From an uncultured Mycoplasmatota bacterium (GTDB lineage: Bacteria > Bacillota_I > Bacilli_A > RF39 > UBA660), in NCBI GenBank assembly GCA_900547225.1, contig URFW01000003.1, positions 13,054-77,053 of the forward strand: a stretch of 64,000 bases of DNA. The letters are read 5' to 3'. Position numbers and translations under genes: made by a program. Under the pieces are notes generated by a model. It was not told where the DNA came from, made no database searches, and was given only the letters and a program-made list of their open reading frames with translations. Below, one piece after another: positions 2,554 through 62,444 of this stretch (positions are counted from its first letter, which is position 1; the number at the start of each line of letters is the position of its first letter).

Positions 2554-3645
2554 TTAGAATTCTTTTTTGCTTCTTAAAATAAGCTTCTTATTGTTTAGTA
2601 ATCTTTTGTTATTAGGTTCCATCTTTATTGCTATATCAACCCATTTTAAGGATTCATCTATTTCTCCTAAGTAAAACGTACTTATAGAAAGTAAGTCATA
2701 TATTGTGTAATCAAAACTAAAGGGTTCATTTATGTATGTTTTTTCATGAGTCTTAATATCTAGTGCCAAAAGGCAATATTTTTTAACAGCACTAAAGTTA
2801 TTAAGCTCATACTCTAAAAATGCCATTTCAACATATGCATCTCTTAAATAAGGAGCTTCATTAATTGCCTTATTAAGCCACATTTTAGCTTCTTCATATC
2901 TTTTTAAATATTTGTAGCATCTTGCTATAAAACGCATAGAAGCTGCTCTTTCATCTTTCCATGTTGCAGACTTTAGTGAAAGATGATAAATAAGTGTATC
3001 TATTGCTTCATTTAATTTTCCATAATACATATATTCTCTTCCTAAATAATGAACGTTTCTATCATTATAAGGATCTTCTTTTACAGATAATTCTAATAAA
3101 GGAAGATAACTACTTCTTGATTTAGAACTATCTGGATAATGATCAACTATTATGTCATTTGTAGTAGCCCAAACTTCATTGCTTCCAGTATATTTTAAAA
3201 CTTCATGAACCGGATTTATCCATTTAAAATTTTTTCTCGCATGTATTTTCTCATAGTAAAAACTTACCTTAGGGTTCTTATTTTCATCATGACTCCAGTT
3301 ATAAATATATCTTACGTGATTTACTTTTTCATTTTCTAATATTTCTTCTAGTTTTTCTCTCCAATTAGGACTTATTACTTCATCAATATCTATACATACA
3401 CATATATCAGCATCGAGTGGTACTAACTTTAAAGATTCATTTCTTGCAACATCAAACCTCCAAGGTTTTATTTCTTTAGTAGTTACTTTAGCTCCTAATT
3501 CTTTTAATATTTTAACAGTATTATCAGTTGAACCAGTATCTAAAACGTATATGCCGTCAGCACTCTTAACTGACTCATACCATCTTTTAGCAAATTTTTC
3601 TTCATTTTTACTTATGGCATAAACATATATTTTTTTCTTTTTCAT
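2554..3645 (-). CDS. family 2 glycosyltransferase with C-terminal TPR repeats
   Basis: N-terminal GT-A signature (VLDTGSTDNT ... DADICVCIDIDEV, a DxD-like motif) and C-terminal TPR-like Y/A/L-rich helices (KSATWKDERAASMRFIARCYKYLKRYEEAKMWLNKAINEAP...). This is the architecture of SunS-type and spore-surface glycosyltransferases. Confidence 0.8.
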   Translation of the reverse strand: MKKKKIYVYAISKNEEKFAKRWYESVKSADGIYVLDTGSTDNTVKILKELGAKVTTKEIKPWRFDVARNESLKLVPLDADICVCIDIDEVISPNWREKLEEILENEKVNHVRYIYNWSHDENKNPKVSFYYEKIHARKNFKWINPVHEVLKYTGSNEVWATTNDIIVDHYPDSSKSRSSYLPLLELSVKEDPYNDRNVHYLGREYMYYGKLNEAIDTLIYHLSLKSATWKDERAASMRFIARCYKYLKRYEEAKMWLNKAINEAPYLRDAYVEMAFLEYELNNFSAVKKYCLLALDIKTHEKTYINEPFSFDYTIYDLLSISTFYLGEIDESLKWVDIAIKMEPNNKRLLNNKKLILRSKKEF

Positions 3646-4592: not shown

Positions 4593-5729
4593 ATGTATAA
4601 ATGTAATGATGATTATGAAAACATAAAAAGAAAAATAGAAGAGGAAAGAAAAAAATACAAATTTTGTTATATTAAAGGTCCGACAGGGCCAAAAGGGGAT
4701 AAGGGTGATATTGGACCTAAAGGAGAAAGGGGTCTTCCAGGTCCTACTAGTATTGATGTTGGAATAACAAAAACAGTAGAACCTTACGAACTTGCCAAAG
4801 TAGAAAATGTTGGAACAAAAAAAGATGCTATTTTAAACTTTAAAATACCAAAAGGGGATAAAGGAGATACAGGTCCTAAAGGAGAAAAAGGACTTACCGG
4901 TCCAAAAGGAGATAAAGGTGATACAGGTCCAAAAGGAGATATGGGAGAAAAAGGAGAAAGAGGAGAGCAAGGACCTTCTACTATACAAATTGGAAATATA
5001 AAAACAATAGAACCAGATGATAAAGCAGAAGTTATTAATGTTGGAACACCAGTAGATGTAGTTTTAGATTTTAAGATACCAAAAGGAGATAAGGGTGATA
5101 TGGGTCCTAGGGGACTTCCTGGTGAAATTGGAAGAACAGAACATATTGCAATAGATGAAACAGAAACGTTAGAACCTGGAGAAGATGCAACTGTTATGGA
5201 TACATTTGAAAATTGGGTACATCATCTTTCTTTTTCAATTCCAAAAGGCCAAAAAGGTGATACGGGTCCTAAAGGAGATATAGGTCCAGCAGGCCCGCCA
5301 GGAAAAGATTTTACATCTTCATATGGAATAAGATATTCTAATACAGAAACACAAATAAATTTACCTCAAGCTGTTGATACAGCACTTCCACTACCTGAAA
5401 AAGGAGCAGCATTGTTTACCGAATACATAAATGATAATTCAATTAAAATAAAAGAAAATGGTGTTTATTTAATATCATTTTCACTGTGTGGTGCAACAAA
5501 TGAAGATTGCTCTTTAACTACTTCTGTAAGGGCGAACGGGTTATTACAACCTGCTACTAATATTACTAGTGAATTTCAAGCTCAAATAATTAATTGCATG
5601 AGTGGTTCTACCATTGTATCTCTTAATCAAGATGACCTTATTACGTTAAATATAAAACCATCTATGACTGTTAATATGATATTTAATGGAAGTACAAGTG
5701 CAATGTTAAGTGTTGCAAAAATACATTAA
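4593..5729 (+). CDS. collagen-like triple-helix repeat protein with three internal beta-modules and a C1q/BclA-C-like C-terminal domain
   Basis: GXY runs (GPTGPKGDKGDIGPKGERGLPGP; GDKGDTGPKGEKGLTGPKGDKGDTGPKGDMGEKGERGEQGP; GDKGDMGPRGLPGE; GQKGDTGPKGDIGPAGPPGK). These are interrupted three times by an approximately 38-aa module that ends in ...FKIPKG(D/Q)KGD. The C-terminal domain is GVYLISFSL...ITLNIKP. Strong RBS AAGGAGGATAATAAT-ATG. Confidence 0.75.
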   Translation: MYKCNDDYENIKRKIEEERKKYKFCYIKGPTGPKGDKGDIGPKGERGLPGPTSIDVGITKTVEPYELAKVENVGTKKDAILNFKIPKGDKGDTGPKGEKGLTGPKGDKGDTGPKGDMGEKGERGEQGPSTIQIGNIKTIEPDDKAEVINVGTPVDVVLDFKIPKGDKGDMGPRGLPGEIGRTEHIAIDETETLEPGEDATVMDTFENWVHHLSFSIPKGQKGDTGPKGDIGPAGPPGKDFTSSYGIRYSNTETQINLPQAVDTALPLPEKGAALFTEYINDNSIKIKENGVYLISFSLCGATNEDCSLTTSVRANGLLQPATNITSEFQAQIINCMSGSTIVSLNQDDLITLNIKPSMTVNMIFNGSTSAMLSVAKIH

Positions 5730-5817: not shown

Positions 5818-7674
5818 ATGCAAATTATAGATGATAATACGGTTGTAGTTTATAGTAGCAACGAACTAAAACAGGCTTTAAGTGAAGCAAATAATTATAA
5901 TTATGTTTATTTAGGAAATGATATTAGTCTTGAAAGCGGTTTTACAATAAATGCTAATAAAATAAACATAACAATAGATGGAACTTATAATAATGTTAAG
6001 TATACTTATACTAATTATTTAACTAATGATTCGGATGTTATAAACGTTAGTACCTCAAACAAAAAAATCACTTTAAAAAATATGAATATAATAAGTTCAC
6101 ATACTTATGGAGTAGTTTATGTTCCATCTCATCCAAACTATTCTAACTTAACTGTTTTTTATAAAAACGTTAATTTTAATGGTGTAGAGCTTTCATGCAA
6201 TTATTATGGAATAACTAAGATTGTTGACTCAAATATAACAGGTGAAGATACAAATTCAGTTACCGTAAGAAAAATATGTGATTCTAATAGAATTATAATG
6301 GGGGGAAATACAACAATTACAAGTAGTTCAAATACTAATACTATTTTCTTTTTTAATGATGTTATTCCATCTTATATTAAAATAGTACCTAATAGTAATG
6401 TTAATATTACAACAAATAGGGAACTTATGAATGGTACTAATAGACTTGATTTAATAGTAGGGCATGGCTCAACTTTTCTATTAACTACTGGAAATGGGTT
6501 TGCAATAACAACAACACATGGTGCTAGAAACGTTTTAATAGAAGAGATGGCTAATTTTACCTTTATAGAAAAAAGCCATCAAAGAGTTCCAATGTGGAAT
6601 GTATTTGGGGATTTTAAGGTTTTAGAAGGTGCTAGTGTATCAGTTATAAATACGTATATGAATACACCAACAGATAATTATAATATTTATTTTAAAGGAA
6701 CAAATCAAAAGTTTATATTAGATAATCCAAAATACGTAAATATTTATACTAAAAATGCAAATGTAGTTTATACGAATAATCCGGTTGAGTTTTCATTTAA
6801 ATTTAGCAGGATAAACATGTGGATATATGCTCTTGATTATAATTTGGCATGTACACTTGATGATGCGCCAGCTTTTTCTTGGTTTAAAGAAAATACGCCT
6901 TCAAAAATAACAGGTACATTAAATAAAGATAATACGGTTATTTCATCTCATAATTTTACGGATAGTGAGTTAGCTCTATTACCAGATATAAGTAATTTCT
7001 CATTTCAAAGTAAAAAAATATTAACGATAGGAATGCTAAAGATGAACGTTCATCCACTTACTGCTACTACAAATGCTATATCAGGTCATACAATACCTTA
7101 TTCTAATGTAAAAATAGAGTATGATAATAAGAGTTTAACGCTAGAAGCAGATGAAAATGGTTTATTTGAAACTAATATTAATGATAATATTTTAGATAAT
7201 ACAAGAGTTAAAATAACTGCTTGTTTAAATGCTTGTTTTTCAGAAAAAAAGGTAATAACTCCTTTTAATGGTGAATTAACACTTCTAAACGTAACAGATA
7301 ATATTCCTTTTAGTATGATGCCATCATCTATAAATCCCGTTGTTTTACCTAAAAAAAATAAAACAGTAATAACTGTAGTTGATAGTAGAGTAAATAGTAC
7401 TAGTTGGAAACTTTATATAAATTATATAAATCCTATGATTGAAAAGGAAGGAAAAGTATTAATAGATTCACTGTTATTTAAAAAGTTTGATAATGAAAAA
7501 ATTAATATAAATGCAAATAAAAAAATGATATATCAATCAAATGATAACGGTGGAAATATTTCAGTAAGTAATGTTACTTTTTCTACTGATAAAGGATTGC
7601 TTTTAAAACCTAGTAAAAGTTTGTTAGAAGATGAAGATTATTCTACTTTAATAATTTGGAGTATAGAGGAGTAA
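5818..7674 (+). CDS. large Asn/Thr/Ser-rich secreted or surface protein, predicted parallel beta-helix N-terminal region plus Ig-like C-terminal domains
   Basis: 618-aa ORF with RBS GAAGGAGGAAGATAAA-ATG. Repetitive N-x-(I/V)-x-(N/G) strands (NINITIDGTYNN, NMNIISSHTYGVVYV, NVNFNGVEL, NVNITTNREL, GHGSTFLLTTGNGFAITTT). No recognisable catalytic motif. Confidence 0.55.
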   Translation: MQIIDDNTVVVYSSNELKQALSEANNYNYVYLGNDISLESGFTINANKINITIDGTYNNVKYTYTNYLTNDSDVINVSTSNKKITLKNMNIISSHTYGVVYVPSHPNYSNLTVFYKNVNFNGVELSCNYYGITKIVDSNITGEDTNSVTVRKICDSNRIIMGGNTTITSSSNTNTIFFFNDVIPSYIKIVPNSNVNITTNRELMNGTNRLDLIVGHGSTFLLTTGNGFAITTTHGARNVLIEEMANFTFIEKSHQRVPMWNVFGDFKVLEGASVSVINTYMNTPTDNYNIYFKGTNQKFILDNPKYVNIYTKNANVVYTNNPVEFSFKFSRINMWIYALDYNLACTLDDAPAFSWFKENTPSKITGTLNKDNTVISSHNFTDSELALLPDISNFSFQSKKILTIGMLKMNVHPLTATTNAISGHTIPYSNVKIEYDNKSLTLEADENGLFETNINDNILDNTRVKITACLNACFSEKKVITPFNGELTLLNVTDNIPFSMMPSSINPVVLPKKNKTVITVVDSRVNSTSWKLYINYINPMIEKEGKVLIDSLLFKKFDNEKININANKKMIYQSNDNGGNISVSNVTFSTDKGLLLKPSKSLLEDEDYSTLIIWSIEE

Positions 7675-12661: not shown

Positions 12662-13417
12662 ATGAAAAAAGGTAAAAAGATATTCCTAATAATTTTGGCT
12701 ATAATATTTATAATTATGTTTTTAATAGGTGTTATGGTAGTAAAGGACTTAAAAGAAGAAGATAAGTTAAGAGATGATATTTCTAGCATAAATGAACTTA
12801 TAAATAGTGATAATCCTGATGATAAATTAATTAACAAAAAACTAAAAACTTATGTTACAACAGGAGACAACTTATCACTAGAAAAAGCTGTTAAAAGATA
12901 TTATTTAGATTCTTATGACTTGGTTAAAAAATATAATAATATAGTCAATGTAGAAAAAATAAGTAATCTTGTATCAATAAATAATTTTATGTTTGATGGA
13001 AAAGATTTTAATATTTCAAAAAATTATATTAATGATATAAATAATAACTTAGATGAAGTAGTAAATGAGGTTAGTGAACAATTATCAGATAAAAATAGAA
13101 ATAAATATTTTGAAAAATATAAATTAGATTCATATTATAAAGATTTATATAATGAGCTTACTTTATCATTTGACTACTTTGGTTCAGAAAAGAGTTTTAG
13201 AAAAAATGTTAATGAACTAAAAGAACTTGTTGGTTTAATTAGTGATACGTTAAATTATTTATCCGATAATAAAAGTCATTGGTTGATATCAAATGATACA
13301 ATTATTTTTGATTCAAAGGAAAAACTAAGTGAATTTGGAATACTATTATCAAAAATAGAGGATAATAATGAGTATATAAATCAAAAAGAAATCACTAAGC
13401 AAGATGAAACATTATAG
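12662..13417 (+). CDS. hypothetical membrane-anchored protein
   Basis: N-terminal signal-anchor followed by a 220-aa Asn/Lys-rich body with no motif. Confidence 0.5.
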   Translation: MKKGKKIFLIILAIIFIIMFLIGVMVVKDLKEEDKLRDDISSINELINSDNPDDKLINKKLKTYVTTGDNLSLEKAVKRYYLDSYDLVKKYNNIVNVEKISNLVSINNFMFDGKDFNISKNYINDINNNLDEVVNEVSEQLSDKNRNKYFEKYKLDSYYKDLYNELTLSFDYFGSEKSFRKNVNELKELVGLISDTLNYLSDNKSHWLISNDTIIFDSKEKLSEFGILLSKIEDNNEYINQKEITKQDETL

Positions 13418-20248: not shown

Positions 20249-20389
20249 TAACATGAAGGTGCTAGAGGTAGCATCTTTTTTTGTTGTAATTTGATAAAAA
20301 CTATGCTAGAATATGTAGCTGGTGTAGTATTAAGTAGTAAAAATAAAAAATATTTTAGATGAAGTTATATATGGAGATATGGGGGAATT

Positions 20390-21550
20390 ATGGCAAAAAA
20401 AGAAAAAATAAATAAGGAACAAGAAGAGCTAAAGCAAAGAAGGCAGTATAATATAGATCACAATTTACCTTCTGAAGAATTAAAAGACATAAGAAAGAAT
20501 TTGTGGTTACACAATACTTTGTATAAAATAATGAGTCTTTTTAACACAATTAGTGGATTTGAAAAAGATTTTGAAAGATATAAATTTAATTTTAATGGTA
20601 GACCAATTATTTTTGCTTTTAATCATGTTAGAATGCAAGATATAGCAATTGAAATGGAGGCCATAAAAAATCATATGGTATTATTATCTGGTGATTTTAA
20701 AAACGTCCATCCGGATATTTCAGGTAAATTATTAGAAAAAAATGGTGTAATTTATTTTGATATGAAAAATCCATATGATAGCTCTGAATTAAAAGAACAA
20801 AGAAAATATTTAGAAGAGATAGAAAGCTATTTAAATGATGATTTAAGTGGAGTACTAAAAGAAGAATATAATAGGGCAAAAGGTGAATATGAAACCAATT
20901 TGAAATCACTTATAAACGATAGACATAATGTTAAAAAGGTTATAAATGATGTATTACAATCTGGGTATAATATGCTATGGTTTTATGAGGGATCTTGGAA
21001 TTTATCTGAAAATAAACCATATTATGAAGGTTATAATTACATGGTAGAAGCTGCATTAAAAAACAATGCAATAGTAATTCCTGGAGCATTTGAAATAATA
21101 GATATACCAGGTAAGAGAAAAAGACGAGCAATAGTAAGATTAGGAAAACCAATTGACTATACCAAAATGTATGATATTAATACTCTTACTAAAGAAGAGA
21201 AAAATGAAGGATTAGATTTAATAAAAGGCCAAATAGGAGGATTGTTATTTGATATATGGGATAAGTACTCAAATGTTTCAAGAGAAAATTTAGAAGAAAA
21301 ATATGTCAAAACTCTAACAACTAAAGATTATTTTGTGCCTGATTATAAAAGAAAAAGCCCACTTATAAAATGTTTTGAAGAATATATGAACAAGGTATTA
21401 AGTGAGTGGAAATTTAGTCTGGAAGATATAGAAGAAAAACATTTTGTTGATAAAAACATAGTAGAACAAAGCAAGGCTTTTGAACACCTTGATAACTTAA
21501 ATTTAAATAAAAATAATGCATTTTTATTATCAAAGAGAAATCATCATTAA
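20390..21550 (+). CDS. putative acyltransferase (PlsC-like HxxxxD motif) family protein
   Basis: FAFNHVRMQD matches acyltransferase motif I (H-x4-D). The rest is unassigned. RBS GGGGGAATT-ATG. Confidence 0.45.
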   Translation: MAKKEKINKEQEELKQRRQYNIDHNLPSEELKDIRKNLWLHNTLYKIMSLFNTISGFEKDFERYKFNFNGRPIIFAFNHVRMQDIAIEMEAIKNHMVLLSGDFKNVHPDISGKLLEKNGVIYFDMKNPYDSSELKEQRKYLEEIESYLNDDLSGVLKEEYNRAKGEYETNLKSLINDRHNVKKVINDVLQSGYNMLWFYEGSWNLSENKPYYEGYNYMVEAALKNNAIVIPGAFEIIDIPGKRKRRAIVRLGKPIDYTKMYDINTLTKEEKNEGLDLIKGQIGGLLFDIWDKYSNVSRENLEEKYVKTLTTKDYFVPDYKRKSPLIKCFEEYMNKVLSEWKFSLEDIEEKHFVDKNIVEQSKAFEHLDNLNLNKNNAFLLSKRNHH

Positions 21551-21620
21551 TTTGATGATTTTTTATTTGCAAAGAAGCTTATTTTCATGTTATACTCTAG
21601 TTATAAAATAGGAGGCTTTT

Positions 21621-23411
21621 ATGAATAACTTATATTTTCCAATATGTGCAGTACTTATAAACATTTTAATTGTAGTAGTATTTTTTAGTAAAAAAAGAAT
21701 TCATAGTGATGAAACAAGAGCATATTCTAACCTTATAATAATTGCGTTGTTAGAATCCTCTTTAGCGTGCCTTTTAGTGGTATTAATGAACCTATATGGA
21801 ATTCCTAAGTATATCTATAACATCCACAGAATAGATTATATTTTAATATTGTTTTGGGTATGGGCGTTATTTAACTATGTACTTATAGTTTCTGTTTATA
21901 ATAATAAAAAGTTAAGAGGGGTAATTCAAAAGTCTACTTTTATAGTAAATATTTTAGTTTCAATTTGCTTTTTCTTTTTAAACGTTAATGTTATAAACAA
22001 AGATGGAATAATTGATACTAATGGTAGTGCGATGAACTTACTTGTAAGCATGTTAGGAATTTACGTGATATTAATCTTGCTTCTAGTATTTAAATCATTA
22101 ATTAAAAATATTAAAAGTTCTAATAACAAAAAATTTATACCATTATTTTTTCTGGCATTATTAGGAATATTATCTCTTGTAATTAGAAGGTTTGCACCGG
22201 AAATATTATTAATTTCATTAGTTGCAGCATACGCTGATTTAATAATGTTTTTTACAATAGAAAATCCCGATGTAAAAATGATATATGAGCTTAACAGAAA
22301 TAAAAAATTATTAGAAAGCATGAGTGAAGAAAAATCTAACTTTTTATTTAGTATGACTCAAGATACTAAAAAGCCTATTGATAATATTTTGGAAGTAAGC
22401 AAAATACTTTTAGACGATAAAAATAAGGAAGATATGAAAACAGGTATTAAAGTTATAGAAAATAATGCTAGAGGACTTAAAAACATCATTAATAACGTAT
22501 TAGATATTTCAAATATATCATCTAGTAAGTTAGTTGTTTCAAACGAAACTTATAATGCTATTTCACTTTTAAATGAATGTATAAAGAAAATAGAAAAAGA
22601 TGTTAATAAGAACGTTACAATAGAAACAGAAATAAGTAAGAACATACCAGATGAGTTATATGGTGATAGCGTTAAGCTAAAACAAGTAATAATGAGTATT
22701 TTAATTAATGCTTCTAAGTATACTAAAGAGGGCTATATAAAGGTAAGTGCTAATGAAATAGTTAAGTATGATGTATGCCGTTTAATTATTGAGATAGAAG
22801 ATACCGGATGCGGAATGAGCGTTGATAAATTAAATGAACTTTTAAAAACTAATACTGATTTAGAAGATACTGACCTTTTAAAACTTAATAGTTTGGATGT
22901 AGATTTAAAACTTGCTTTTAAAATAATTAGAAAATTAGGTGGTTTTATAAATATTAGAAGTGAAAAAGAAAAGGGAAGTACGTTTACTATAATTTTAGAC
23001 CAAAAAATAAAAGTTAGTAAAGATTATTATAGTGAGTACATCTTTAATAAGAAAAAGGTAATGGTTGTAAGTGATAAATTGCAAACTTTAAAAGATATAA
23101 ATACTTTAGCTAGCAAGTATGACATAGAACTTTTAACTACAATGCATAGTAGTGATATTATAGAAAGAGTAAAAGATGGTGAGAGTTTTGACTTAATTCT
23201 TTTAGAAGATGATATGAAGCCTATAAGCGGTTTTGGTACGCTTGGAAAACTTCAAGAAGCAAAAGAAGGATTTAATGTTCCAACCGTTATAATGCTAAAC
23301 AAGAACAAAGAATCAATAAAGGATCATTATGTTGAGGATGGATTTAGTAATTACATAAGAAAACAAAATCTAGAAGAAGACTTCGATAAAGTAATAAAAA
23401 AATATATATAA
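21621..23411 (+). CDS. membrane histidine-kinase-like protein with degenerate H-box (His replaced by Gln) and C-terminal receiver-like domain
   Basis: Six to seven N-terminal TM helices. A DHp-like region SNFLFSMTQDTKKPI sits where kinases have S-x-F-L-A-x-M-S-H-E-L-R-T-P-L. An intact HATPase_c follows (N-box ILINASKYT, G1 EDTGCGM, G2 GGFINIRSEKEKGSTFTI), then a roughly 120-aa CheY-like domain (DLILLEDDMKP). Confidence 0.65.
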   Translation: MNNLYFPICAVLINILIVVVFFSKKRIHSDETRAYSNLIIIALLESSLACLLVVLMNLYGIPKYIYNIHRIDYILILFWVWALFNYVLIVSVYNNKKLRGVIQKSTFIVNILVSICFFFLNVNVINKDGIIDTNGSAMNLLVSMLGIYVILILLLVFKSLIKNIKSSNNKKFIPLFFLALLGILSLVIRRFAPEILLISLVAAYADLIMFFTIENPDVKMIYELNRNKKLLESMSEEKSNFLFSMTQDTKKPIDNILEVSKILLDDKNKEDMKTGIKVIENNARGLKNIINNVLDISNISSSKLVVSNETYNAISLLNECIKKIEKDVNKNVTIETEISKNIPDELYGDSVKLKQVIMSILINASKYTKEGYIKVSANEIVKYDVCRLIIEIEDTGCGMSVDKLNELLKTNTDLEDTDLLKLNSLDVDLKLAFKIIRKLGGFINIRSEKEKGSTFTIILDQKIKVSKDYYSEYIFNKKKVMVVSDKLQTLKDINTLASKYDIELLTTMHSSDIIERVKDGESFDLILLEDDMKPISGFGTLGKLQEAKEGFNVPTVIMLNKNKESIKDHYVEDGFSNYIRKQNLEEDFDKVIKKYI

Positions 23412-23486: not shown

Positions 23487-25796
23487 ATGACAGAACTAGA
23501 AAGATTAGATGGCTATTTTAGAGCGGCTAATTATATATCGGCTTGTCAACTTTATTTGCTTGATAATCCACTTTTAAAAAGACCACTTAAAGCATCAGAC
23601 ATTAAAAAGAAAATAGTAGGTCACTGGGGAACTGTTCCAGGACAAAACTTTATTTATACTCATCTAGACAGGGTAATTAATAAATATGATTTAGATATGA
23701 TTTATATATCAGGCCCAGGTCATGGTGGTAACTTTATGATTGCTAATACCTACTTAGAAGGTAGTTATACCGAAAAGTATCCTAATATTACTCAGGATGA
23801 AGCAGGTTTGCAAAAGTTATTTAAACAATTTTCATTTCCAGGTGGTGTTCCAAGTCATGTTGCACCAGAAACTCCGGGTTCAATTCATGAAGGAGGAGAA
23901 TTAGGTTATTCACTTAGTCATGCTTTTGGAGCAGTTTTTGATAATCCAAATTTAATTGCAGCGTGCATAGTAGGAGATGGAGAAGCAGAAACAGGGCCAC
24001 TTGCAACAAGTTGGCATGGAATAAAATTTTTAAATAAGAAGACTGATGGTGCAGTACTTCCTATACTTCATTTAAATGGTTATAAAATAAGTAATCCAAC
24101 TATTTTCTCTAGAATGAGCAACGAAGAACTTGCTAGTTTCTTTTATGGATGTGGATATAAAGCTTATTTAGTAGAAGGCTCTGACGAACTTTTAATGCAT
24201 AAAAAAATGGCATCAACAATGGATGCGGTAATTAATGATATTAAAGAAATCAAGAAATCAAATGATGATGAAAAGCCAAGGTGGCCAATGATTATTTTAA
24301 GAACTCCTAAAGGTTGGACGGGTCCAAAAAAAGTTGATGGTAAAAATATAGAAGGCTCTTTTAGAGCACATCAAGTTCCTGTTTCTATGGACAAAAAAGA
24401 ACATATTAAAATACTTGAAGATTGGCTTAGAAGTTATAAACCAGAAGAATTGTTTGATTCTAATGGAAAATTAAAAAAAGAGTATGAAAGTGTTTGTCCA
24501 AAAGGTGATAAACGCATGGGTTCAAGTTTATATACTAATGGAGGTTACTTAAGAAAAGATTTAATTATGCCTGACTTTAGAAATTATAAAGTTGATGTTC
24601 CTTATCCAGGTAGTGTTAAAAATCAAGATATGCTTGTATTAAGTTCATTTATAAAAGATATATTTTCTCTTAATAATGAAAACAAAAACTTTAGAATTTT
24701 TGGACCAGATGAAACCATGTCAAACAGGTTATATGATGTTTTTGATGTAACTAATAGAGATTGGCAACTAGACATAAAAGAAAATGATGAATATTTATCT
24801 AAAGATGGTAGGGTAATGGATTCAATGCTTTCAGAACATATGTGTGAGGGAATGCTAGAAGGTTACCTTTTAACTGGTAGACACGGATTTTTTGCTAGCT
24901 ACGAAGCGTTTATAAGAATTGTTGATTCAATGGCAGCACAACATGCTAAATGGCTTAAAGTATGTAATGAAATTTCTTGGAGAAAACCTATTTCATCACT
25001 TAACTTTTTGTTAGCATCAAACGTATGGCAACAAGATCATAATGGTTTTACTCACCAAGATCCAGGCTTTATGGATCATATTGCAAATAAAAAGGTAGAT
25101 GTTATTAGAATATATTTACCACCAGATGCTAACTGTTTGTTATCTTGTATGGACCACTGTTTAAAAAGTAAGAATTACGTAAACGTTGTAATAGCATCAA
25201 AACATCCATCTTATCAGTGGCTTAATATGGATGATGCCGTAAGACATTGTACTAATGGTATTGGTATATGGAATTTTGTTAGCAACGACGCTAATCCAGA
25301 TTTAATAATGGCTTGTGCAGGTGATACGCCAACTATTGAAGCAATCGCAGCAACAAAGATACTAAAGTCTTATTTACCAGATTTAAAAATAAGATTTATA
25401 AATGTTGTTGACTTAATGAAGTTAGATTCTACAACTAATCATCCACATGCTTTAAATGATATAGCATACGATTATTTATTTACTAAAGATAAACCAATTA
25501 TTTTTGCATTTCATGGTTACCCAACATTAATTCATGAATTAACTTACTTTAGACATAATCATAATATACATGTTCATGGATATGTTGAAGAAGGAACTAT
25601 TACAACTGCATTTGATATGAGAGTTAAAAATAAGATAGATAGGTTTAACTTAGTAATAGATGCTGTAAATAACCTAGATTTAGGTAATATAGGTGAAAAA
25701 ATAATTAGTGATATGAATAAAAAACTAGAAGAACATAATAATTATATTAAAGAATATGGAGAAGATTTAGAGGAAATAAGAAATTGGAGGTTTTAA
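23487..25796 (+). CDS. xfp: xylulose-5-phosphate/fructose-6-phosphate phosphoketolase
   Basis: GHWGTxPG and ISGPGHGG thiamine-diphosphate motifs, 769 aa. Confidence 0.9.
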
Positions 25797-27211: not shown

Positions 27212-27298
27212 AAATGAAAGTTAAGTTTGGGCTTAACTTTTTTTATGTAGTTTAATTTTAGTGTTAATTATATAATATGTAGTGTAGGAGATGATGTT

Positions 27299-27958
27299 AT
27301 GAATAGTATTTTTAAATCTAATTTTGTGAAATTATTGATAAGTATTTTAGCCATTGTTACAACTGGTACTTTAATTTTTATATCTATTAATAATAAAGAT
27401 AAGAAAACAGATTGGAAAGATAAGTATGTTATGTATTTAAAACAAAAGATATTTAACAATAATAATGAAACGTACGTGTGGCTTAATAACTTAAGTAGGG
27501 AAAATATTCCAAGTTTAATTGTTAAAACTAAAAATGATATACACGTTGTTCAAATAAGTAATGGTTATGCCATAGAACCATTTACATATAATGATGCAAG
27601 TTTATGCTATATTTATTCTAAAGAAAGAAAAGGTTATAATTGGTATGTAAGACATATGGAAGATGGTTATGTTACGTATACTGATATTTCTTATATGTAT
27701 AATCCAAACAAGCCAAATTATAGTTTCGTAGATTATAATAACTTTGATAATAACTATGTGTTAGATAAAAAAGAAGTTTCATACTACAAATTAGAAAAAT
27801 CAAATTTTGAAGAAGAATTTATTCGTTATGCAGATAATTATAAACCTGAAAAAAATGTAACTAATTCTATAGATACTAGCAAAACGACAAGTACTACTAC
27901 GAAAAATAGTACTTCAAAAGTTAAAGAAAGTACCCAAAAAATAATAAATTACAGGTAG
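27299..27958 (+). CDS. hypothetical secreted or membrane-anchored protein
   Basis: Signal-anchor, Tyr/Asn-rich body, and a C-terminal Thr/Ser-rich tail. Confidence 0.45.
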   Translation: MNSIFKSNFVKLLISILAIVTTGTLIFISINNKDKKTDWKDKYVMYLKQKIFNNNNETYVWLNNLSRENIPSLIVKTKNDIHVVQISNGYAIEPFTYNDASLCYIYSKERKGYNWYVRHMEDGYVTYTDISYMYNPNKPNYSFVDYNNFDNNYVLDKKEVSYYKLEKSNFEEEFIRYADNYKPEKNVTNSIDTSKTTSTTTKNSTSKVKESTQKIINYR

Positions 27959-27969
27959 GAAGTTATAGT

Positions 27970-28269
27970 TTGCAATACGGAACGTATAAGGGTATTGATT
28001 ATTATTACACGGATGATGTTAATTCAAAGTATGAAATAACTATTAAAATTAAAAGTGATAACACTTATGAGATTTTATCAAGTAACTCTAATGCTATAAC
28101 AAACTCTAACGGCAAAATAGAAATAATTAATAATACTTTTGGAGGAAGTAATAATAAGGCTATTAGATTAGGTGATAAATCATTTATCGTAGATAGTAAT
28201 AATACAATTACTTTTTCAGCAGGTAGTGGCTCATCATTGTTTTTCCTTCTTTTTTTTATAATTAGATAG
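27970..28269 (+). CDS. hypothetical small protein with C-terminal hydrophobic tail
   Basis: 99-aa ORF 11 nt after the previous stop. Confidence 0.35.
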   Translation: MQYGTYKGIDYYYTDDVNSKYEITIKIKSDNTYEILSSNSNAITNSNGKIEIINNTFGGSNNKAIRLGDKSFIVDSNNTITFSAGSGSSLFFLLFFIIR

Positions 28270-28559
28270 GCATTATATCATTATTATTAACATTATAAAT
28301 TAACGTTTACAAGAGTCTGAAAATAGTCATTTTTTTAAACTTTCCTTTTTTGCTTGTAATTCTACAATTCAAAAAACTTTTCTCATTATGATGTTCAGAT
28401 TACAAGCATTTATCAAAAAATAATTAACATAATAAAAAAGCTCGGAATATCCGAACGTCTTTATTTTTATAAAAGTTTTTCTGTCATATTGTATTTGAAA
28501 AGTCAACTGTTATTTGTTGAAAATTATGATTTTTTCTTATTATGTTGTCTTTACTTTAT

Positions 28560-29099
28560 CTATTTTATTTCTTTAATATTATTTAAAATTCCATTATAAT
28601 AATAGTCTTCTTGTTTGAAAATAAAAAGTGGCGTAGTATCATTATTTATAAAAATCAGATAAACAAAATCTCCTTTTTCAACCTTTCTAAAAAAATCTGA
28701 ATAAACAGGAAAATCTTTATTATATACTTTAGAATATTCTTTTAATGTTAGATAATGTTCTTTATCTGGATATTCATTGTCTTTGCTTAATGTTACCTCA
28801 ATGTTAGTTATTTGATCTAAAACTACTTTATAATTCCTATTTCTTATTTTTTTTATAATTTGCTTTTTTTTATTCAATTTAATCAAAGGTAATAAATTAA
28901 ACATTAAAGAAAATAAAATACAGAATATAAAATCACAGATTAAATTAAAAGTACTTAATTTATTAATATATATAAACGGTGATAATACTATTATTATTGA
29001 TGCTATAACAAAGATTACTGTAAAAATAACATCTGTTTTATATCCTGTTTCACTTTCCAATAATTTTTCGTTAATTTCTATTTTTTCTTTTTCTCTCAT
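28560..29099 (-). CDS. hypothetical membrane protein (2 TM N-terminal), second gene of a two-gene operon
   Basis: Follows 29107-29730 after an 8-nt gap. No motif. Confidence 0.45.
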   Translation of the reverse strand: MREKEKIEINEKLLESETGYKTDVIFTVIFVIASIIIVLSPFIYINKLSTFNLICDFIFCILFSLMFNLLPLIKLNKKKQIIKKIRNRNYKVVLDQITNIEVTLSKDNEYPDKEHYLTLKEYSKVYNKDFPVYSDFFRKVEKGDFVYLIFINNDTTPLFIFKQEDYYYNGILNNIKEIK

Positions 29100-29106
29100 A
29101 TTTACC

Positions 29107-29730
29107 TCACTTTATTTCATTAATCCAATTAGGATTATATTTCAAATTTAATTCTTTATTAGTAGTTTTATTATAATACTTAGTAACAGATTCTTTAACT
29201 TCAACACCTGGTTTAAAACCAGCATTAATATACATATAACAAGCAATTATAATTGATATTAAAGAATAATTATCATTTTTTACATATATCTTATAATTAT
29301 GTAAATCGTTATATATAATTTGCTCTGTATCTATTTGAGCTACTTGAATATCATTCATATAAATTGGACATTTAGATTCAGTTCCTAATCCAATACCATA
29401 TTCTTTATAAATCTCATTATTGTAAATTAATTCGGTATATTCATAATTACCAAATAAACCGGTTTTTTTATTTGTTTGGTATATTTCTCCAACGTTCTTT
29501 TCAGATACAATTATTTGATATGGTCTGAACTTTTTATTTTTTGTTTTTGTAAATAAACCACCCGTATATTTTAATTCAAATGGTATATTATTAAAATTAC
29601 CAATTAAAGAAGATTCCATTGAAGCTAACTTTCCTTTAACGTTAATTGAACCTAATATATTACCATTAGAAATTATTTCAAAATCTGCTTCATACATTTC
29701 TTTATTTTTTTGTCTTATATCTATCATCAT
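29107..29730 (-). CDS. hypothetical protein with C-terminal TM
   Basis: 207-aa ORF with RBS GGAGGTTATAATTT-ATG. No motif. Confidence 0.45.
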   Translation of the reverse strand: MMIDIRQKNKEMYEADFEIISNGNILGSINVKGKLASMESSLIGNFNNIPFELKYTGGLFTKTKNKKFRPYQIIVSEKNVGEIYQTNKKTGLFGNYEYTELIYNNEIYKEYGIGLGTESKCPIYMNDIQVAQIDTEQIIYNDLHNYKIYVKNDNYSLISIIIACYMYINAGFKPGVEVKESVTKYYNKTTNKELNLKYNPNWINEIK

Positions 29731-29936
29731 AAATTATAACCTCCAATTTTTAAATTTTAATCCATCATCCGATAACATAAAATCTGTAAATACTGAAAAA
29801 CTATCTTTTTTTATTTTACACTCATTTTTATTCTCCTAATATAATTTTATTATACATTATAAATAGGATGTAAATCAATTTAAAAATATATGTTAAAGTT
29901 AATTCCTTTGTTATATAATATTAATAGGAGAATGTT

Positions 29937-53856: not shown

Positions 53857-55763
<1,907 letters not shown>

Positions 55764-55904
55764 ATATCTTTAACTTCCTATAAAATTCAATATAATATTT
55801 TGTTTGCTTTTTCATGTAGTACCTCACTTTCTAATAAAAGACTAGATACTGCTTCCTTTATTGGTTTTATATTGTATCATTTATTTTTAGTTTGTCAAAC
55901 CATA

Positions 55905-56174
55905 TTAGTTCATTTTTAAGTATTGTTCTAAATCTTTAAACTTAATTTTGTTATTATAACCGTTTATAAAGACATTTTCACTATCTTCAAATATTAAGTA
56001 GTCATTGCCTTTAACTTTCAAAATATGGGGTTTTACATAGGCTATATTAGTATTTTTAAGATTTATAATATATCCATTAGTAAAGGAATATTCCACATAA
56101 GCAAACTTACATATCATTTCAATCTTTCTTTTTAATTCTTCACTTATTACAAGTTTTTTAGTTTCTATTGTCAT
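55905..56174 (-). CDS. hypothetical small protein between recombinase and tRNAs
   Basis: 89-aa ORF with no motif. Confidence 0.4.
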   Translation of the reverse strand: MTIETKKLVISEELKRKIEMICKFAYVEYSFTNGYIINLKNTNIAYVKPHILKVKGNDYLIFEDSENVFINGYNNKIKFKDLEQYLKMN

Positions 56175-56270: not shown

Positions 56271-56345
56271 TGGAGCAAGTGAGGAGAATCGAACTCCCGT
56301 CTCAGCCTTGGCAAGGCCGCGTACTAGCCGTTGTACTACACCTGC
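56271..56345 (-). tRNA. tRNA-Gly (anticodon GCC)
   Basis: Reverse-complement folds as acceptor GCAGGTG/CACTTGC, D-arm GTAC-AACGGCTA-GTAC, anticodon stem CGGCC/GGCTG with loop TTGCCAA, T-arm GGGAG-TTCGATT-CTCCT, and 3' TCCA. Confidence 0.85.
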
Positions 56346-56353
56346 AAATAAAT

Positions 56354-56428
56354 TGGAGGGGCCAGCCGGATTTGAACCGGCGATCGTGGAGTTGCAGTCC
56401 AATGCCTTACCAGCTTGGCTATAGCCCC
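56354..56428 (-). tRNA. tRNA-Cys (anticodon GCA)
   Basis: Reverse-complement: acceptor GGGGCTA/TGGCCCC, anticodon loop CTGCAAC, T-arm GCCGG-TTCAAAT-CCGGC, and 3' TCCA. Confidence 0.8.
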
Positions 56429-58707: not shown

Positions 58708-59814
58708 TCAATTTGTATTTGATATTTTCTTTTCTTTTAAACACTTTATAAAAATAATTGTTAAAATTATAAATATAGGAATAGCAATAAAAGGAACATA
58801 ATAATTTTTTATAATCATAATAGAGTGTGGGATGTTTCCGAATAATGTATTAGCACTTATAATTGATATTATACTTATTAAAATAATTAAAATATAGTTA
58901 GTTTTTTTAGAAATTTTAAAAGTTTTTAAATATGTATTAATTCCAAAAAAGGATGTGTAACAAAGAGCAAGTATATAAAATAACCATCTAAATGCTAGTA
59001 AGTTTTCTATGTGCAGTCCAGATGATGTTATTCCAATTTTTTTAAGTAAAATATATTCTGGATATCTAAATAAAGTAGCCATATTAAATCCAAAACACGA
59101 AACTACATAAAACATTACAACAAGTAAAGCTATTTGAGATATTAAATAGAAAATTAAAAATGTTTTATTAAATCTTTTTTTATCTATTATTTTATCTTTG
59201 TTAATTGTTAAAAGTAAAATAGATAATAAAGCTGAGGAACAAGCTTCATATATAGCGGCATCTATTATTTTAAATACATATTTTTTATTTATTATAATAG
59301 GTAGTATATTATCTATTTCTATATAATGAAAAAGTAGAACTTCTATTATAATTACTAAGATTAAACTTATTATAAATGAGATTTGTGATATTCTAGATAT
59401 TACTTCTATGCCCTTTAAGCTGATTATAAAAACGGTTATTAAAATAAGTATTCCAACAAAATAAAAAGGTGTGTTTTGTAGGTATTTACTTGTTACAAAT
59501 ATAACTGATGCTCTAATTGATACGATAAATAAAAACAAGTAAAATAAAAATATTAATGCATTAAATATATTTGCTATTGGTTTTTTAAAAAGTTTTTTAT
59601 TTTTTTCAAATATATTAAGATTTGTATGTGTATTATTTATTTTTAAATACATTAGTATGGGAATAAGTCCTATTATAGCACCAATTATAACTCCTATTAA
59701 AACGCCATTATTAGCTTTTCTAAGCAATATTACATCACTTAGACCTATATACATACTTAAACATATTAAAGTTAAAAGCATGCTTATTTGAGTACTTGAT
59801 ACTTTATTATTCAT
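58708..59814 (-). CDS. spore germination protein, GerAB/GerKB family (amino-acid-permease-like B subunit)
   Basis: 368 aa with about 10 TM. Third gene of the ger operon, overlapping the upstream gene by 8 nt. Confidence 0.8.
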   Translation of the reverse strand: MNNKVSSTQISMLLTLICLSMYIGLSDVILLRKANNGVLIGVIIGAIIGLIPILMYLKINNTHTNLNIFEKNKKLFKKPIANIFNALIFLFYLFLFIVSIRASVIFVTSKYLQNTPFYFVGILILITVFIISLKGIEVISRISQISFIISLILVIIIEVLLFHYIEIDNILPIIINKKYVFKIIDAAIYEACSSALLSILLLTINKDKIIDKKRFNKTFLIFYLISQIALLVVMFYVVSCFGFNMATLFRYPEYILLKKIGITSSGLHIENLLAFRWLFYILALCYTSFFGINTYLKTFKISKKTNYILIILISIISIISANTLFGNIPHSIMIIKNYYVPFIAIPIFIILTIIFIKCLKEKKISNTN

Positions 59815-61015
59815 AACTATTTTCCTTTCTAACTGATTTTATAGAAAGCTCAGTTGATTTTATTTGTACATTAGTATTAAATTTAAAACTTATTTTATTT
59901 AATATATCTTTATTTTTATACCCTAATTTTTTAGTTTCTTTGTATTTTTTACTATAGAATTTTTCTGCATATTTAAGTACATCAGCTTTTTCTTTAACAT
60001 ATAGTTTATCTATTGTTTTATTCATTAAGGTATTAATTCTATTTTTTGCTTTAATCTCTAATTTTTTTATTACTTTATCATTATTTAAAAAGTCTGATTT
60101 ACAATTATATTCTAAAAGATCAGCATCAATTTTTGTTTTAATATTTACTATTGGATTATTATTTTCATAATAAAGATTTTCTTTAAAATTGCTGTTATTA
60201 AGTCTTAATGTTGCGTAATTTTTACTGTCGCATTTAACATTTACGTAAGTCTCTTTAGCAACATTAGCTAAAAAATTATATCCAACACTTTCATTAGTAG
60301 TTAAATATCCTTTAAGTTTATTATTTTTAAAGTATCCAAGGGTATCAAATGTTAATTTGGTATTAGGATTACTTTCTTTTATATTGTCCATCTTTTCACC
60401 ATTATTTATCTTTCCTTTTATTTTTACAGATGGAATAATTGCTTCTGTTTTTGAATTTGATAAATCAGATATAAATTCATCTATTGTAACAACTGTTAAA
60501 ATACCACTAAAGTTATCTGCAACCGACAAAGTTGATCTTAGGTTTTTAGAAGGTAATGTTTCAAGTGGCGTTATTACCTTTAAAATGCTAGATGCATCTT
60601 TTTCTTTTGAAACCATAACTGCAGAATCTTTTTCGGACCCTGGGTCTCTCATAAAGTAATCTAGATAATTAAGGGGATTTTCTTTTTTTAATAATTCTTC
60701 ACTTATTACAACAACTTCATTATGACCTAAGTATAATTCTTTTGGAGAATCAAGCATTATTTTTTCAAGGGCATCATATATTGTTTTTCCACTAGCTTCA
60801 TAAAATGTTATTAAACTACTATCTGATTCTTCATCTTTTTTAGCATTCATTATTTGTATTCCTACTTTATATTTATTTACACTTTTTCCTTTATTTTCAT
60901 CAATTGATATACCTGATACTATTGCATAATCATTTATTTCTTTGTAATTAAAACAACCACTTAAGGTAAATAGGATAATTATAAAAACTATTGAATTAAA
61001 TATCTTTTTCATCAT
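59807..61015 (-). CDS. spore germination lipoprotein, Ger(x)C family
   Basis: Signal peptide with lipobox LSGC, then ...YAIVSGISIDEN typical of GerAC-family proteins. Confidence 0.8.
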   Translation of the reverse strand: MMKKIFNSIVFIIILFTLSGCFNYKEINDYAIVSGISIDENKGKSVNKYKVGIQIMNAKKDEESDSSLITFYEASGKTIYDALEKIMLDSPKELYLGHNEVVVISEELLKKENPLNYLDYFMRDPGSEKDSAVMVSKEKDASSILKVITPLETLPSKNLRSTLSVADNFSGILTVVTIDEFISDLSNSKTEAIIPSVKIKGKINNGEKMDNIKESNPNTKLTFDTLGYFKNNKLKGYLTTNESVGYNFLANVAKETYVNVKCDSKNYATLRLNNSNFKENLYYENNNPIVNIKTKIDADLLEYNCKSDFLNNDKVIKKLEIKAKNRINTLMNKTIDKLYVKEKADVLKYAEKFYSKKYKETKKLGYKNKDILNKISFKFNTNVQIKSTELSIKSVRKENSYE

Positions 61016-62444
61016 AATCCTCCTTAGTGTATATGTTTTTAGGATTTAGTTTAACATCTTTAAACTCTAGTATTGCATCTTTTTGTGCTTCTTTATTAAA
61101 TGGTTCAAAAGGAGAGAGGTAAGGCTTTCCACAAGATTTTTGTGATGCTAGTATTGCAATCATTATAATAAGACCAAACATCACGCCAATAAAACCAAAT
61201 AGGGATGCTAAAATAATTAATATAAGTTGCCACCATCTAATTGAATTTATTAATTCTATTGATGAAAAGGCAAGGGATGCAACTGATGAAATACCAACTA
61301 TTATAATCGTAATAGGTGAAACTATTCCAGCTTCAACAGCAGCTTGACCTAAAACTAAAGCACCAACTATTGAAATAGAACTTCCACCTTTACCAGGAAA
61401 TCTTAAATCACTTTCTCTTAATACTTGAAACATAAAACTCATAACTAATATTTCAAATACCGTGGTAAATGGAACGCCATCTCTTTGAATTGAAAAATTA
61501 ATTAAAAGACCACTTGGTATAGCTTCTAGATTGTAAGCCATAAGAGAAATGTAAATAGCGGGCGTTAGAAGACTTAATAACATAGATACAATTCTTATTA
61601 CTCTGCTTGCAAATGCGTTAAGACTTTTTTCGTAATAATCATCTGGTGTTTTAAAAAAATCAATAAAGGTGCAAGGTAATATTATAACTTCATTTGAGTT
61701 TTCACACATAAGAACGCATCTTCCCTGAAGAAGCATTTGACACGCTAAATCAGGTCTTTCAGTTGGAAGTGTAATAGGAAATATCGCTCTATTAGAATTA
61801 CTTATGGCATCAATTATATAATTAGAATTTCCTACGTAATCGATTTTTATATTTTTAATTTTTTTATATATTTTATCAACTAATTTTTTATCACATACAC
61901 CATTTAAATAAAAAAGAGCAACTTTTGTTTTACTTTTTTCACCAACAGTTACTTCCTTAATCCATAAATCTTCCGTTTTTAGTCTTCTTCTTATCATTCC
62001 GATGTTTGATTGATAATTTTCGGTAAAGGCATCAAGCGGTCCTTTAAGACTTTTTTCATTTTCACTTCTTTGAACACTACTTGTTAGATTAGCTTTATTT
62101 TCAAATGCAATAATTTTCTTCTCATCATCGAATAAAACTAGTGTAAAACCATTAAAAAGATAATATAAAGCATCTTTTATTGTGCTTATTAAGATAGCAG
62201 TATTATTTGGAATATAATTTTTAATGTATGAAAAGATATCTTTATCTAAAAGTTTATTTCCTTCTTCATCTAATCTTCTTAAGATAAAATCATTTATATC
62301 ATTTTGACTACTTACACTATTTGAATATATAAGTGTAATTATTTTATCCCCAATTGGGTAATTTTTGTATGTTACATCAGGTGCGTTTCCAGTTCTTTTT
62401 TTTATTTCTTCAATTATTTTTTCTTTTGTTTTTGGTATTGTCAT
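60996..62444 (-). CDS. spore germination protein, GerAA/GerKA family (A subunit)
   Basis: 482 aa with an N-terminal soluble domain plus a C-terminal 5-TM region. Overlaps the C-subunit gene by 20 nt. RBS AGAGGGATAAT-ATG. Confidence 0.85.
   Translation of the reverse strand: MTIPKTKEKIIEEIKKRTGNAPDVTYKNYPIGDKIITLIYSNSVSSQNDINDFILRRLDEEGNKLLDKDIFSYIKNYIPNNTAILISTIKDALYYLFNGFTLVLFDDEKKIIAFENKANLTSSVQRSENEKSLKGPLDAFTENYQSNIGMIRRRLKTEDLWIKEVTVGEKSKTKVALFYLNGVCDKKLVDKIYKKIKNIKIDYVGNSNYIIDAISNSNRAIFPITLPTERPDLACQMLLQGRCVLMCENSNEVIILPCTFIDFFKTPDDYYEKSLNAFASRVIRIVSMLLSLLTPAIYISLMAYNLEAIPSGLLINFSIQRDGVPFTTVFEILVMSFMFQVLRESDLRFPGKGGSSISIVGALVLGQAAVEAGIVSPITIIIVGISSVASLAFSSIELINSIRWWQLILIILASLFGFIGVMFGLIIMIAILASQKSCGKPYLSPFEPFNKEAQKDAILEFKDVKLNPKNIYTKEDYDEKDI

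Follow-up and report, generated by a model that had tools for sequence, protein, structure and literature searches.

A predicted seven-helix pseudo-hybrid histidine kinase encoded beside an acyl-enzyme gene in uncultured gut Bacilli

The gene described here encodes a 596-residue membrane protein and lies in a 64,000-nucleotide (64-kb) stretch of DNA from an uncultured Mycoplasmatota bacterium (assembly GCA_900547225.1, contig URFW01000003.1, forward-strand positions 13,054 to 77,053). We refer to this whole stretch as the window and number positions within it. The gene is preceded directly by a PlsC/LPLAT-type acyltransferase gene, which follows a gene for HSP20, and is succeeded directly by the phosphoketolase gene xfp (23487-25796, +; domains XFP_N, XFP and XFP_C). 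Its product combines a seven-helix transmembrane (7TM) sensor domain with DHp, CA and receiver-like domains (Table 1). We compared this sensor, its partner enzyme and their surroundings with loci of close and distant relatives, which are cited by locus number (L001 and so on) where a particular one is meant.

Table 1. Features of the acyltransferase-sensor locus, in positions of the window
Feature	Position	Strand	Remarks
Terminator-like hairpin	20255..20278	+	After the HSP20 gene; upstream end of the transcription unit
Promoter-like site, TTGTAA-17-TAGAAT with upstream TG	20284..20312	+	Consensus match only
Variable cassette: acyltransferase gene and sensor codons 1 to ~205 (7TM)	20353..22234	+	From comparison with L005
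PlsC/LPLAT-type acyltransferase gene, 386 residues	20390..21550	+	Directly upstream of the sensor gene; motifs, family hidden Markov model E = 2.4e-119
Pseudo-hybrid histidine kinase (sensor) gene, 596 residues	21621..23411	+	7TM, DHp, CA and pseudo-receiver in that order
Seven-helix membrane sensor domain, residues 1-214	21621..22262	+	N terminus outside; beta-hairpin 123-134 between helices 4 and 5
T-I-E-N-P-D junction motif, residues 212-217	22254..22271	+	Near-invariant family-wide; repeated recombination breakpoint
DHp helical hairpin, residues 216-293	22266..22499	+	No His inside
Gln247 codon, CAA	22359..22361	+	Occupies the phospho-acceptor His position
CA (HATPase_c) domain, residues 313-463	22557..23009	+	N363, D394, G396 and G398 present; F box and G2 box gone
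Degenerate G2 position, S-L-D-V-D-L-K, residues 424-430	22890..22910	+	G-T-G-L-G-L-A in canonical relatives
Pseudo-receiver domain, residues 478-595	23052..23405	+	S484-D485, E529, L559, K581
Glu529 codon	23205..23207	+	Phospho-acceptor Asp position by ungapped alignments

The DHp and CA folds are both present, as judged from the Pfam match to HATPase_c (PF02518, residues 348-461, E = 3.5e-13), the AlphaFold2 model and the Foldseek matches of the cytoplasmic part, which comprise ShkA, HK853, WalK, GacS, DivL and RetS. The HisKA profile matches residues 238-300 with 24.5 bits, under its cut-off of 26.9, and the best NCBIfam partial matches of the whole protein are the hybrid kinases BarA, ArcB, TorS and LuxQ. 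In the full-length AlphaFold2 model (mean pLDDT 74.9, with low confidence in the CA lid region) the seven membrane helices span residues 2-214 with the beta-hairpin at 123-134, followed by DHp at 216-293, CA at 313-463 and the receiver at 478-595. The modelled 7TM domain is a seven-helix bundle predicted to superimpose on structures of G-protein-coupled receptors (GPCRs). Such GPCR-like 7TM sensors on prokaryotic histidine kinases have already been reported at scale (PMC13581589), so the predicted fold is not new in kind. The receiver fold is likewise retained in the model and in its PF00072 match (residues 480-591, 30.6 bits against a cut-off of 30.2), in agreement with the CheY-like domain that a first-pass annotation of this DNA had placed at the C terminus.

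Three alignments, each independent of the others, agree in placing Gln247 at the position of the phospho-acceptor His. With phmmer, the segment KSnFLfsMtQdtkkPi pairs with KSeFLanMSHEiRTPl of GacS in a comparison with the solved kinases GacS, RetS and HK853; with MAFFT, Gln247 stands opposite the His of a canonical hybrid kinase from L011; and it does so again when the protein is aligned with 28-29 canonical relatives from its family, which read FLSSMSHEIRTPL. The replacement of His by Gln claimed by the first-pass annotation is therefore borne out, as is its change of Arg to Lys three residues further on (K250). The annotation had also allowed for a His elsewhere in the helix, and this alternative can be ruled out: the only His residues of the protein are 28, 69, 509 and 569, with none between residues 70 and 508 and hence none in DHp or CA. 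Because no His occupies the DHp position, the sensor is predicted to be unable to autophosphorylate on His.

The ATP-binding boxes, which had been read as intact, are so only in part. The N box (INASKYT, with N363) and the G1 box (DTGCG, with D394, G396 and G398) are present. The G2 box is lost, its position lying within LDVDLKL where canonical relatives have GTGLGL, and the F box is lost as well (LLKTNTD against the canonical LFDEFMQ); the downstream GG/GST (G3) region was probably mistaken for G2. The HisKA phosphatase motif, defined as E/D-x-x-T/N directly after the His (as cited in PMC12963549), corresponds to D248-T-K-K251, in which the acidic residue is kept and T/N has become Lys. The more distant L010 reads E-D-I-K-T at this position, and the T/N residue is not conserved across the His-less relatives described below. 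The broken motif and its missing conservation disfavour the earlier suggestion that the protein might serve as a receiver phosphatase; a scaffold, the other possibility then raised, would fit.

In the receiver domain, ungapped alignments with RR468, another solved receiver and canonical family members (ILMDDM) place Glu529 at the acceptor site, so the Asp pair that had been noted in DLILLEDDM does not provide the acceptor. The acidic pair of beta1 is S484-D485 and the conserved Thr is replaced by L559; in all, three active-site residues out of five are replaced and D485 and K581 are kept. No Hpt domain occurs in the 596-residue protein and none is encoded within the window. Taken together, the sequence supports a pseudo-kinase with a pseudo-receiver. 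The earlier view of a pseudokinase in place of a conventional sensor thus gains in strength, since the phospho-acceptor His, the F box, the G2 box, the phosphatase T/N and three of five receiver residues are all replaced.

These losses are not a matter of chance, because Gln247, Glu529 and the G2 replacement are invariant among orthologs down to ~70% identity. Metagenomes contain well over a hundred nearly identical copies in which the open reading frame (ORF) is uninterrupted. In comparisons with alleles of the same species, Nei-Gojobori dN/dS of the cytoplasmic part is 0.043 (20 synonymous and 4 nonsynonymous changes) and 0.048; between species it is 0.11-0.17, and DHp, CA and REC taken singly all stay below 0.2. 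Strong purifying selection acts on each of the three cytoplasmic domains, and these values rule out a decaying pseudogene. Between species, dN/dS of the transmembrane domain is 0.15-0.2.

The protein belongs to a large uncharacterised family. When 1.84 billion cluster representatives were searched exhaustively with HMMER, more than 150 clusters at 50% identity aligned across the full 596 residues, with 29-42% identity. Among the best 150 clusters the residue at the His position is Gln in 84, His in 29, Asn in 12 and Glu in 7; 117 of the 150 are His-less, and G2 has been lost in every His-less member as well. Members with His are fully canonical (SMSHEIRTPL, GTGLGLA, VDD, D, T, KP) and often carry Hpt domains or a second receiver, or else are followed directly by a gene for a 260-residue Hpt-REC protein. 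They share with the window protein the 7TM signature, the TIENPD junction, the domain order and an upstream acyltransferase or ligase gene, but differ in having SMSHEIRTPL, GTGLGL, D-D, D, T, K-P and Hpt partners, which the window protein lacks. The membrane-domain signature (K24, E31, Y86, G135, P174 and P193) is common to His-type and His-less members, and the junction is 93-100% conserved in both. Specific to the His-less clade is the conservation of E223, F243, Q355, R387 and D460, and within it N363, D394, G396 and G398 are 87-93% conserved. The Hpt-REC protein of ~260 residues found after His-type sensors in L053, L084, L055 and L079 has no output domain, except that in L079 its ORF runs on into a SAM-dependent methyltransferase domain; as far as the sequences tell, the relay of the canonical members has no evident transcription-factor output.

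We built a neighbour-joining tree with the catalytic columns masked, including 26 full-length canonical members (His and G2 both present). All 110 His-less sequences fall into a single clade of 112, together with two sequences that have His and lack G2; the 26 canonical members lie outside, and a third sequence of the type with His and no G2 clusters with these. Since masking leaves all His-less sequences in one clade, the tree argues for a derivation of this clade from the canonical family, a 7TM hybrid kinase with an Hpt-REC partner, through one ancient loss. The Gln codons, CAA and CAG, are one step away from the His codon CAT, and the prevalence of Gln would thus largely reflect descent from a single H-to-Q change, with moderate constraint afterwards. 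In L010, at 40% identity, Glu takes the place of the His while the receiver is canonical including its Asp, which implies that the receiver decayed later, in the lineage of the window. In one subclade (L025, L027, L029 and L033) the His is kept (FELSHEVREP) but G2 is lost (KINVGIK), and Phe replaces the receiver Asp. Its members stand in tandem ligase-sensor-ligase-sensor duplications, as at 4145-11517 of L025; the subclade may represent an intermediate, or else a reversal, on the way to the His-less state.

The acyltransferase encoded upstream carries the motifs HX4D (NHVRMQD) and E-[GA]-x-W-N (YEGSWN), whose residues H, D, E, W and N do not vary among 36 copies. Because both motifs are intact, the partner enzyme is apparently active; its matches to TIGR00530 are sub-threshold. 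A terminator-like site is found neither between the acyltransferase and sensor genes nor between the sensor gene and xfp, and the first two genes are probably co-transcribed. Scanning for promoters was uninformative, as matches in the region are no commoner than in shuffled sequence. Elsewhere within the window there are no kinase, receiver, Hpt or ligase genes. The position of xfp is conserved in close relatives and not in L010, where uvrB lies downstream instead. A link through acetyl-phosphate, the product of phosphoketolase and a phosphodonor of receivers, was considered and rejected, as the receiver here has no Asp and it is L010, which keeps the Asp, that has uvrB downstream. Just upstream of the acyltransferase-sensor pair of L010 (6455-8806, +) lies a gene for a 783-residue protein with ~20 tandem copies of a ~34-residue repeat, SEEFKxHPxLFTSxVLAQGNLKEIKDIL.

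The pairing of sensor and enzyme extends through the family. We counted neighbours in 80 metagenome loci of distant relatives, taking non-redundant family genes with a visible same-strand upstream neighbour. For the 57 His-less sensors this neighbour is an acyltransferase in 25 cases, an acyl-CoA ligase in 27 and another gene in 5; the corresponding numbers are 7, 20 and 3 for 30 canonical sensors (His and G2), and 0, 9 and 1 for the 10 sensors that keep His and have lost G2. An acyltransferase or ligase thus stands directly upstream of 52 of 57, 27 of 30 and 9 of 10 genes respectively, or ~90% of family genes. The second type of partner is an AMP-binding protein of ~600 residues (PF00501 and PF13193, E = 4e-72), with a long-chain-fatty-acid--CoA ligase (FadD-like) as its best NCBIfam match. 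Intergenic gaps between enzyme and sensor are typically 16-100 nucleotides in family loci, and 12 of 15 non-redundant tandem arrays have one enzyme gene for every sensor gene. A literature search on kinase/acyl-CoA-ligase pairs found nothing relevant.

Within the species of the window, enzyme and membrane domain vary together. Compared with the same-species locus L005, the window is 97-98% identical in nucleotide sequence up to position 20352 and again from 22235, with no nucleotide match between these points. The N-terminal 212 residues of the two sensors are 34% identical and the C-terminal 384 residues 99%, and the two acyltransferases share 20% identity. A comparable replacement separates L001 and L009 (protein identities of 21% for the acyltransferase, 25% for the 7TM domain and 90% for the cytoplasmic part). 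L001 and L007 present the reverse case: the acyltransferase (97%) and 7TM domain (100%) are kept while the cytoplasmic part is at 80%, and nucleotide identity drops from 95-99% to 65-80% exactly at the junction. The cassette contains no signal-precursor gene, the gaps being ~140 and 70 nucleotides with no ORF of at least 60 residues listed between genes. We also considered an anti-phage defence locus, which a polymorphic cassette might suggest, and dropped the idea, as no PADLOC profile matches at the locus.

We typed the 7TM domains of 190 full-length proteins, all with a cytoplasmic part that shares at least 68% identity with that of the window. Type A accounts for 145 and type B for 44, and L009 represents a type C. 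Types A and B sit on cytoplasmic modules that are 99%, 97%, 96% and 94% identical in four different lineages; across such exchanges, in the species of the window and at least three related lineages, 7TM identity is 33-39% on modules 94-99% identical. Because both types recur on near-identical cytoplasmic modules in four lineages, the T-I-E-N-P-D junction is a site of repeated recombination; enzyme and sensor domain together behave as one allele that can be exchanged and is common to several species. Two paralogs instead of alleles can be rejected for the species of the window, where type B holds the same position between HSP20 and xfp in L005 and L006, though the genome may contain a second copy elsewhere. 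Relative to the L005 allele, synonymous divergence (dS) reaches 0.23 in the DHp region at 22257-22535, about fourfold the value in CA or REC (~0.05). Given this raised divergence, the recombination tract may fade out inside DHp and have no sharp stop at the junction.

The relatives of the window come from metagenome-assembled genomes of uncultured gut 'Bacilli', 'Mollicutes' and 'Mycoplasmatota', from Candidatus Aphodocola (Bacilli incertae sedis) and from Clostridium sp. CAG:594. The last belongs to the same species as the window, since its flanking DNA is 97-98% identical. A true Clostridium is rejected as host, because source names and NCBI taxonomy place the relatives in uncultured Bacilli or 'Mollicutes'. 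The window encodes GerA (E = 1.6e-137), GerAC and a BclA-like collagen-repeat protein; on the strength of these genes the host is probably spore-forming, and the non-sporulating host suggested by the Mollicutes labels was rejected once they had been found. The germination receptor operon occupies 58708-62444 (-), with GerA at 60996-62444, GerAC at 59807-61015 and an ORF of 368 residues (58708-59814, -) at the position expected for GerAB. The collagen-triple-helix repeat protein (4593-5729, +) has a BclA C-terminal domain and resembles exosporium filaments, and a glycosyltransferase-TPR gene (2554-3645, -) lies near it. The first-pass annotation had framed the sensor in terms of the clostridial Spo0A phosphorelay. 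That framing is weak for a host from an uncultured gut Bacilli lineage, and neither the locus nor the family offers pointers to sporulation.

A few pseudo-histidine kinases are already known, namely DivL, RetS and PsmA. HisKA domains without His make up ~0.9% of sampled domains, and receivers without Asp ~2% (PMC12632262). The nearest parallel in the literature is PsmA of Streptomyces venezuelae, also a hybrid kinase with a receiver, in which the H-box His is replaced by Glu (Gln in S. avermitilis); it has likewise lost the phosphatase motif, is conserved, makes protein-protein contact (with DivIVA) and does not need its receiver Asp for function (PMC12963549). PsmA is, however, cytoplasmic, sits at hyphal tips and retains the receiver Asp (PMC12963549), whereas the window protein has a 7TM domain, Glu529 and an acyl-enzyme neighbour and comes from gut Bacilli. 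In DivL of Caulobacter and RetS of Pseudomonas, both among our best matches, DHp-CA is similarly repurposed as a conformational or binding module, and the G2 region of RetS seems degenerate too, by eye in the phmmer alignment. DivL differs in that Tyr occupies the His site, several PAS domains are present and CckA is under its control; RetS has retained its His and inhibits GacS through heterodimers formed by DHp, whereas the window protein has no evident partner kinase. Plant pseudo-response regulators and bacterial pseudo-receivers also keep the receiver fold after replacement of the acceptor Asp, in the plant proteins typically by Glu, as here (PMC12632262), but the window protein is a single membrane-bound chain in which pseudo-receiver and pseudokinase are joined, with both halves of the relay dead.

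We favour, with moderate confidence, a membrane-anchored pseudo-hybrid histidine kinase that is linked to an acyl enzyme and acts by protein contact and not by phosphotransfer. Its 7TM domain would recognise an acyl or lipid compound tied to the partner enzyme, whether substrate or product, or the enzyme itself. A conformational change would then be relayed via the TIENPD junction into a dimeric module of DHp, CA and pseudo-receiver, and this module would work through protein-protein contact as an allosteric regulator or scaffold. The CA domain may still bind nucleotide as a ligand, because the N and G1 boxes are kept. Several points weigh against this proposal. Nucleotide binding without the G2 lid is uncertain, and no partner for the cytoplasmic module was identified across the 64-kb window. 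The GPCR-like fold of the 7TM domain is a prediction built on 14 sequences. For the window acyltransferase, PF01553 gives 15.6 bits against a 23-bit cut-off (E 0.015); the corresponding scores for the L005, L009 and L010 alleles are 34-47 bits (E 3e-8 to 3e-12). The functional link between sensor and enzyme is drawn from gene order and co-exchange, and neighbouring position could itself explain part of the latter: recombination depends on conserved flanking sequence, which is first found in HSP20 on one side and in the cytoplasmic module on the other.

The dead DHp-CA module might instead heterodimerise with, or control, a real kinase or response regulator in the manner of RetS or DivL, for example as a brake on sporulation acting on Spo0A, as the first-pass annotation had imagined. 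The closest solved relatives in sequence and fold do include these two non-canonical kinases, the GerA/GerAC and BclA-like genes suggest that the host sporulates, canonical paralogs of the family exist in other organisms, and PtpB of C. difficile acts as a repressor of sporulation for which its His is dispensable, perhaps in a hetero-oligomer (PMC11210211). We nevertheless consider such a modulator unlikely: the window offers no kinase, receiver or Hpt partner, no locus examined combines a His-less with a canonical family member, the acyl enzyme is the sole conserved neighbour and no locus is linked to sporulation genes. Conventional dephosphorylation of Spo0A~P is itself improbable with a broken phosphatase motif.

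By analogy with quorum-sensing loci, the cassette might encode a lipid pherotype, in which each acyltransferase allele would make an acylated signal read only by the co-inherited 7TM allele, with a phosphorylation-independent output. The pherotypes of comQXP (comQ-comX-comP) are comparable to the specificity groups of agr in the layout of the variable segment. In agr (agrB-agrD-agrC) the hypervariable segment covers the modifying enzyme and the membrane sensor of the receptor and leaves the cytoplasmic module conserved, as in our cassette (PMC10482373). The joint replacement of acyltransferase and 7TM domain within one species, the A/B dimorphism in at least four lineages, the reverse case of L001 and L007 and the one-to-one pairing in tandem arrays would all fit. 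Yet agr and comQXP contain a peptide precursor gene, whereas the window cassette has an acyltransferase, a receptor incapable of phosphorylation and a hypothetical signal, with no precursor gene, exporter or secretion signal. The acyltransferase shows no evident membrane or export features, adjacency alone may account for the co-exchange, dN/dS in the transmembrane domain gives no sign of rapid diversification, and half of the family has an acyl-CoA ligase instead, a better fit to metabolism than to signal synthesis. We regard a pherotype as quite unlikely; if true, it would provide uncultured gut Bacilli with a channel for kin or strain recognition, whose A and B types are held across species by balancing selection. 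Residual catalysis is less credible still. A CA domain that hydrolyses ATP, or phosphorylates Ser, Thr or Tyr like other GHKL-type kinases through its N and G1 boxes, could explain the high conservation of N363, D394, G396 and G398 in the His-less clade, and S/T246 adjoins Gln247. With the ATP-lid F and G2 boxes gone in every His-less member, such activity is very improbable; moreover, S246 is ancestral and 100% conserved in canonical relatives, and hence not a new acceptor, and the analogous hybrid pseudokinase PsmA has no autokinase activity (PMC12963549). That the gene is simply decaying and functionless, as the many missing catalytic residues might suggest, is hardly conceivable for an ORF intact in so many copies, with low dN/dS in each domain, clade-specific conserved residues and conserved gene order.

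Elsewhere in the window, a large serine recombinase (Resolvase and Recombinase domains) at 53877-55751 (-) and 56274-56428 (-) adjoins two tRNA genes; GC skew is inverted around it (54001-56000), and this stretch may be the edge of an integrated element. A segment of ~2.7 kb at 27244-29910, of very low GC content (0.21) and with reversed GC skew, is missing from the same-species loci L005 and L012 and present in L014, and is a strain-variable insertion. Its ORFs (27299-27958, +; 28560-29099, -; 29107-29730, -) have no Pfam hits on record. A further ORF of 618 residues (5818-7674, +) has no Pfam match at E <= 1e-5.

We found no description in the literature of a large Gln-type clade, of a near-obligate pairing with an acyl enzyme or of a trans-specific polymorphism of enzyme plus 7TM domain, and both the enzyme pairing and the cassette polymorphism appear to be new. 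Surveys with the HisKA profile will mostly have missed the clade, because its H box scores under the threshold. The His-less clade comprises at least 110 clusters at 50% identity in which the chemistry is gone and selection is strong, and so provides a natural test of what a kinase scaffold can do without phosphotransfer. A GPCR-like 7TM domain so regularly paired with fatty-acyl enzymes suggests that gut Firmicutes possess an unstudied module for sensing or handling lipids. Polymorphism of enzyme plus sensor that spans species is a population-genetic pattern seen otherwise in the specificity groups of quorum sensing.

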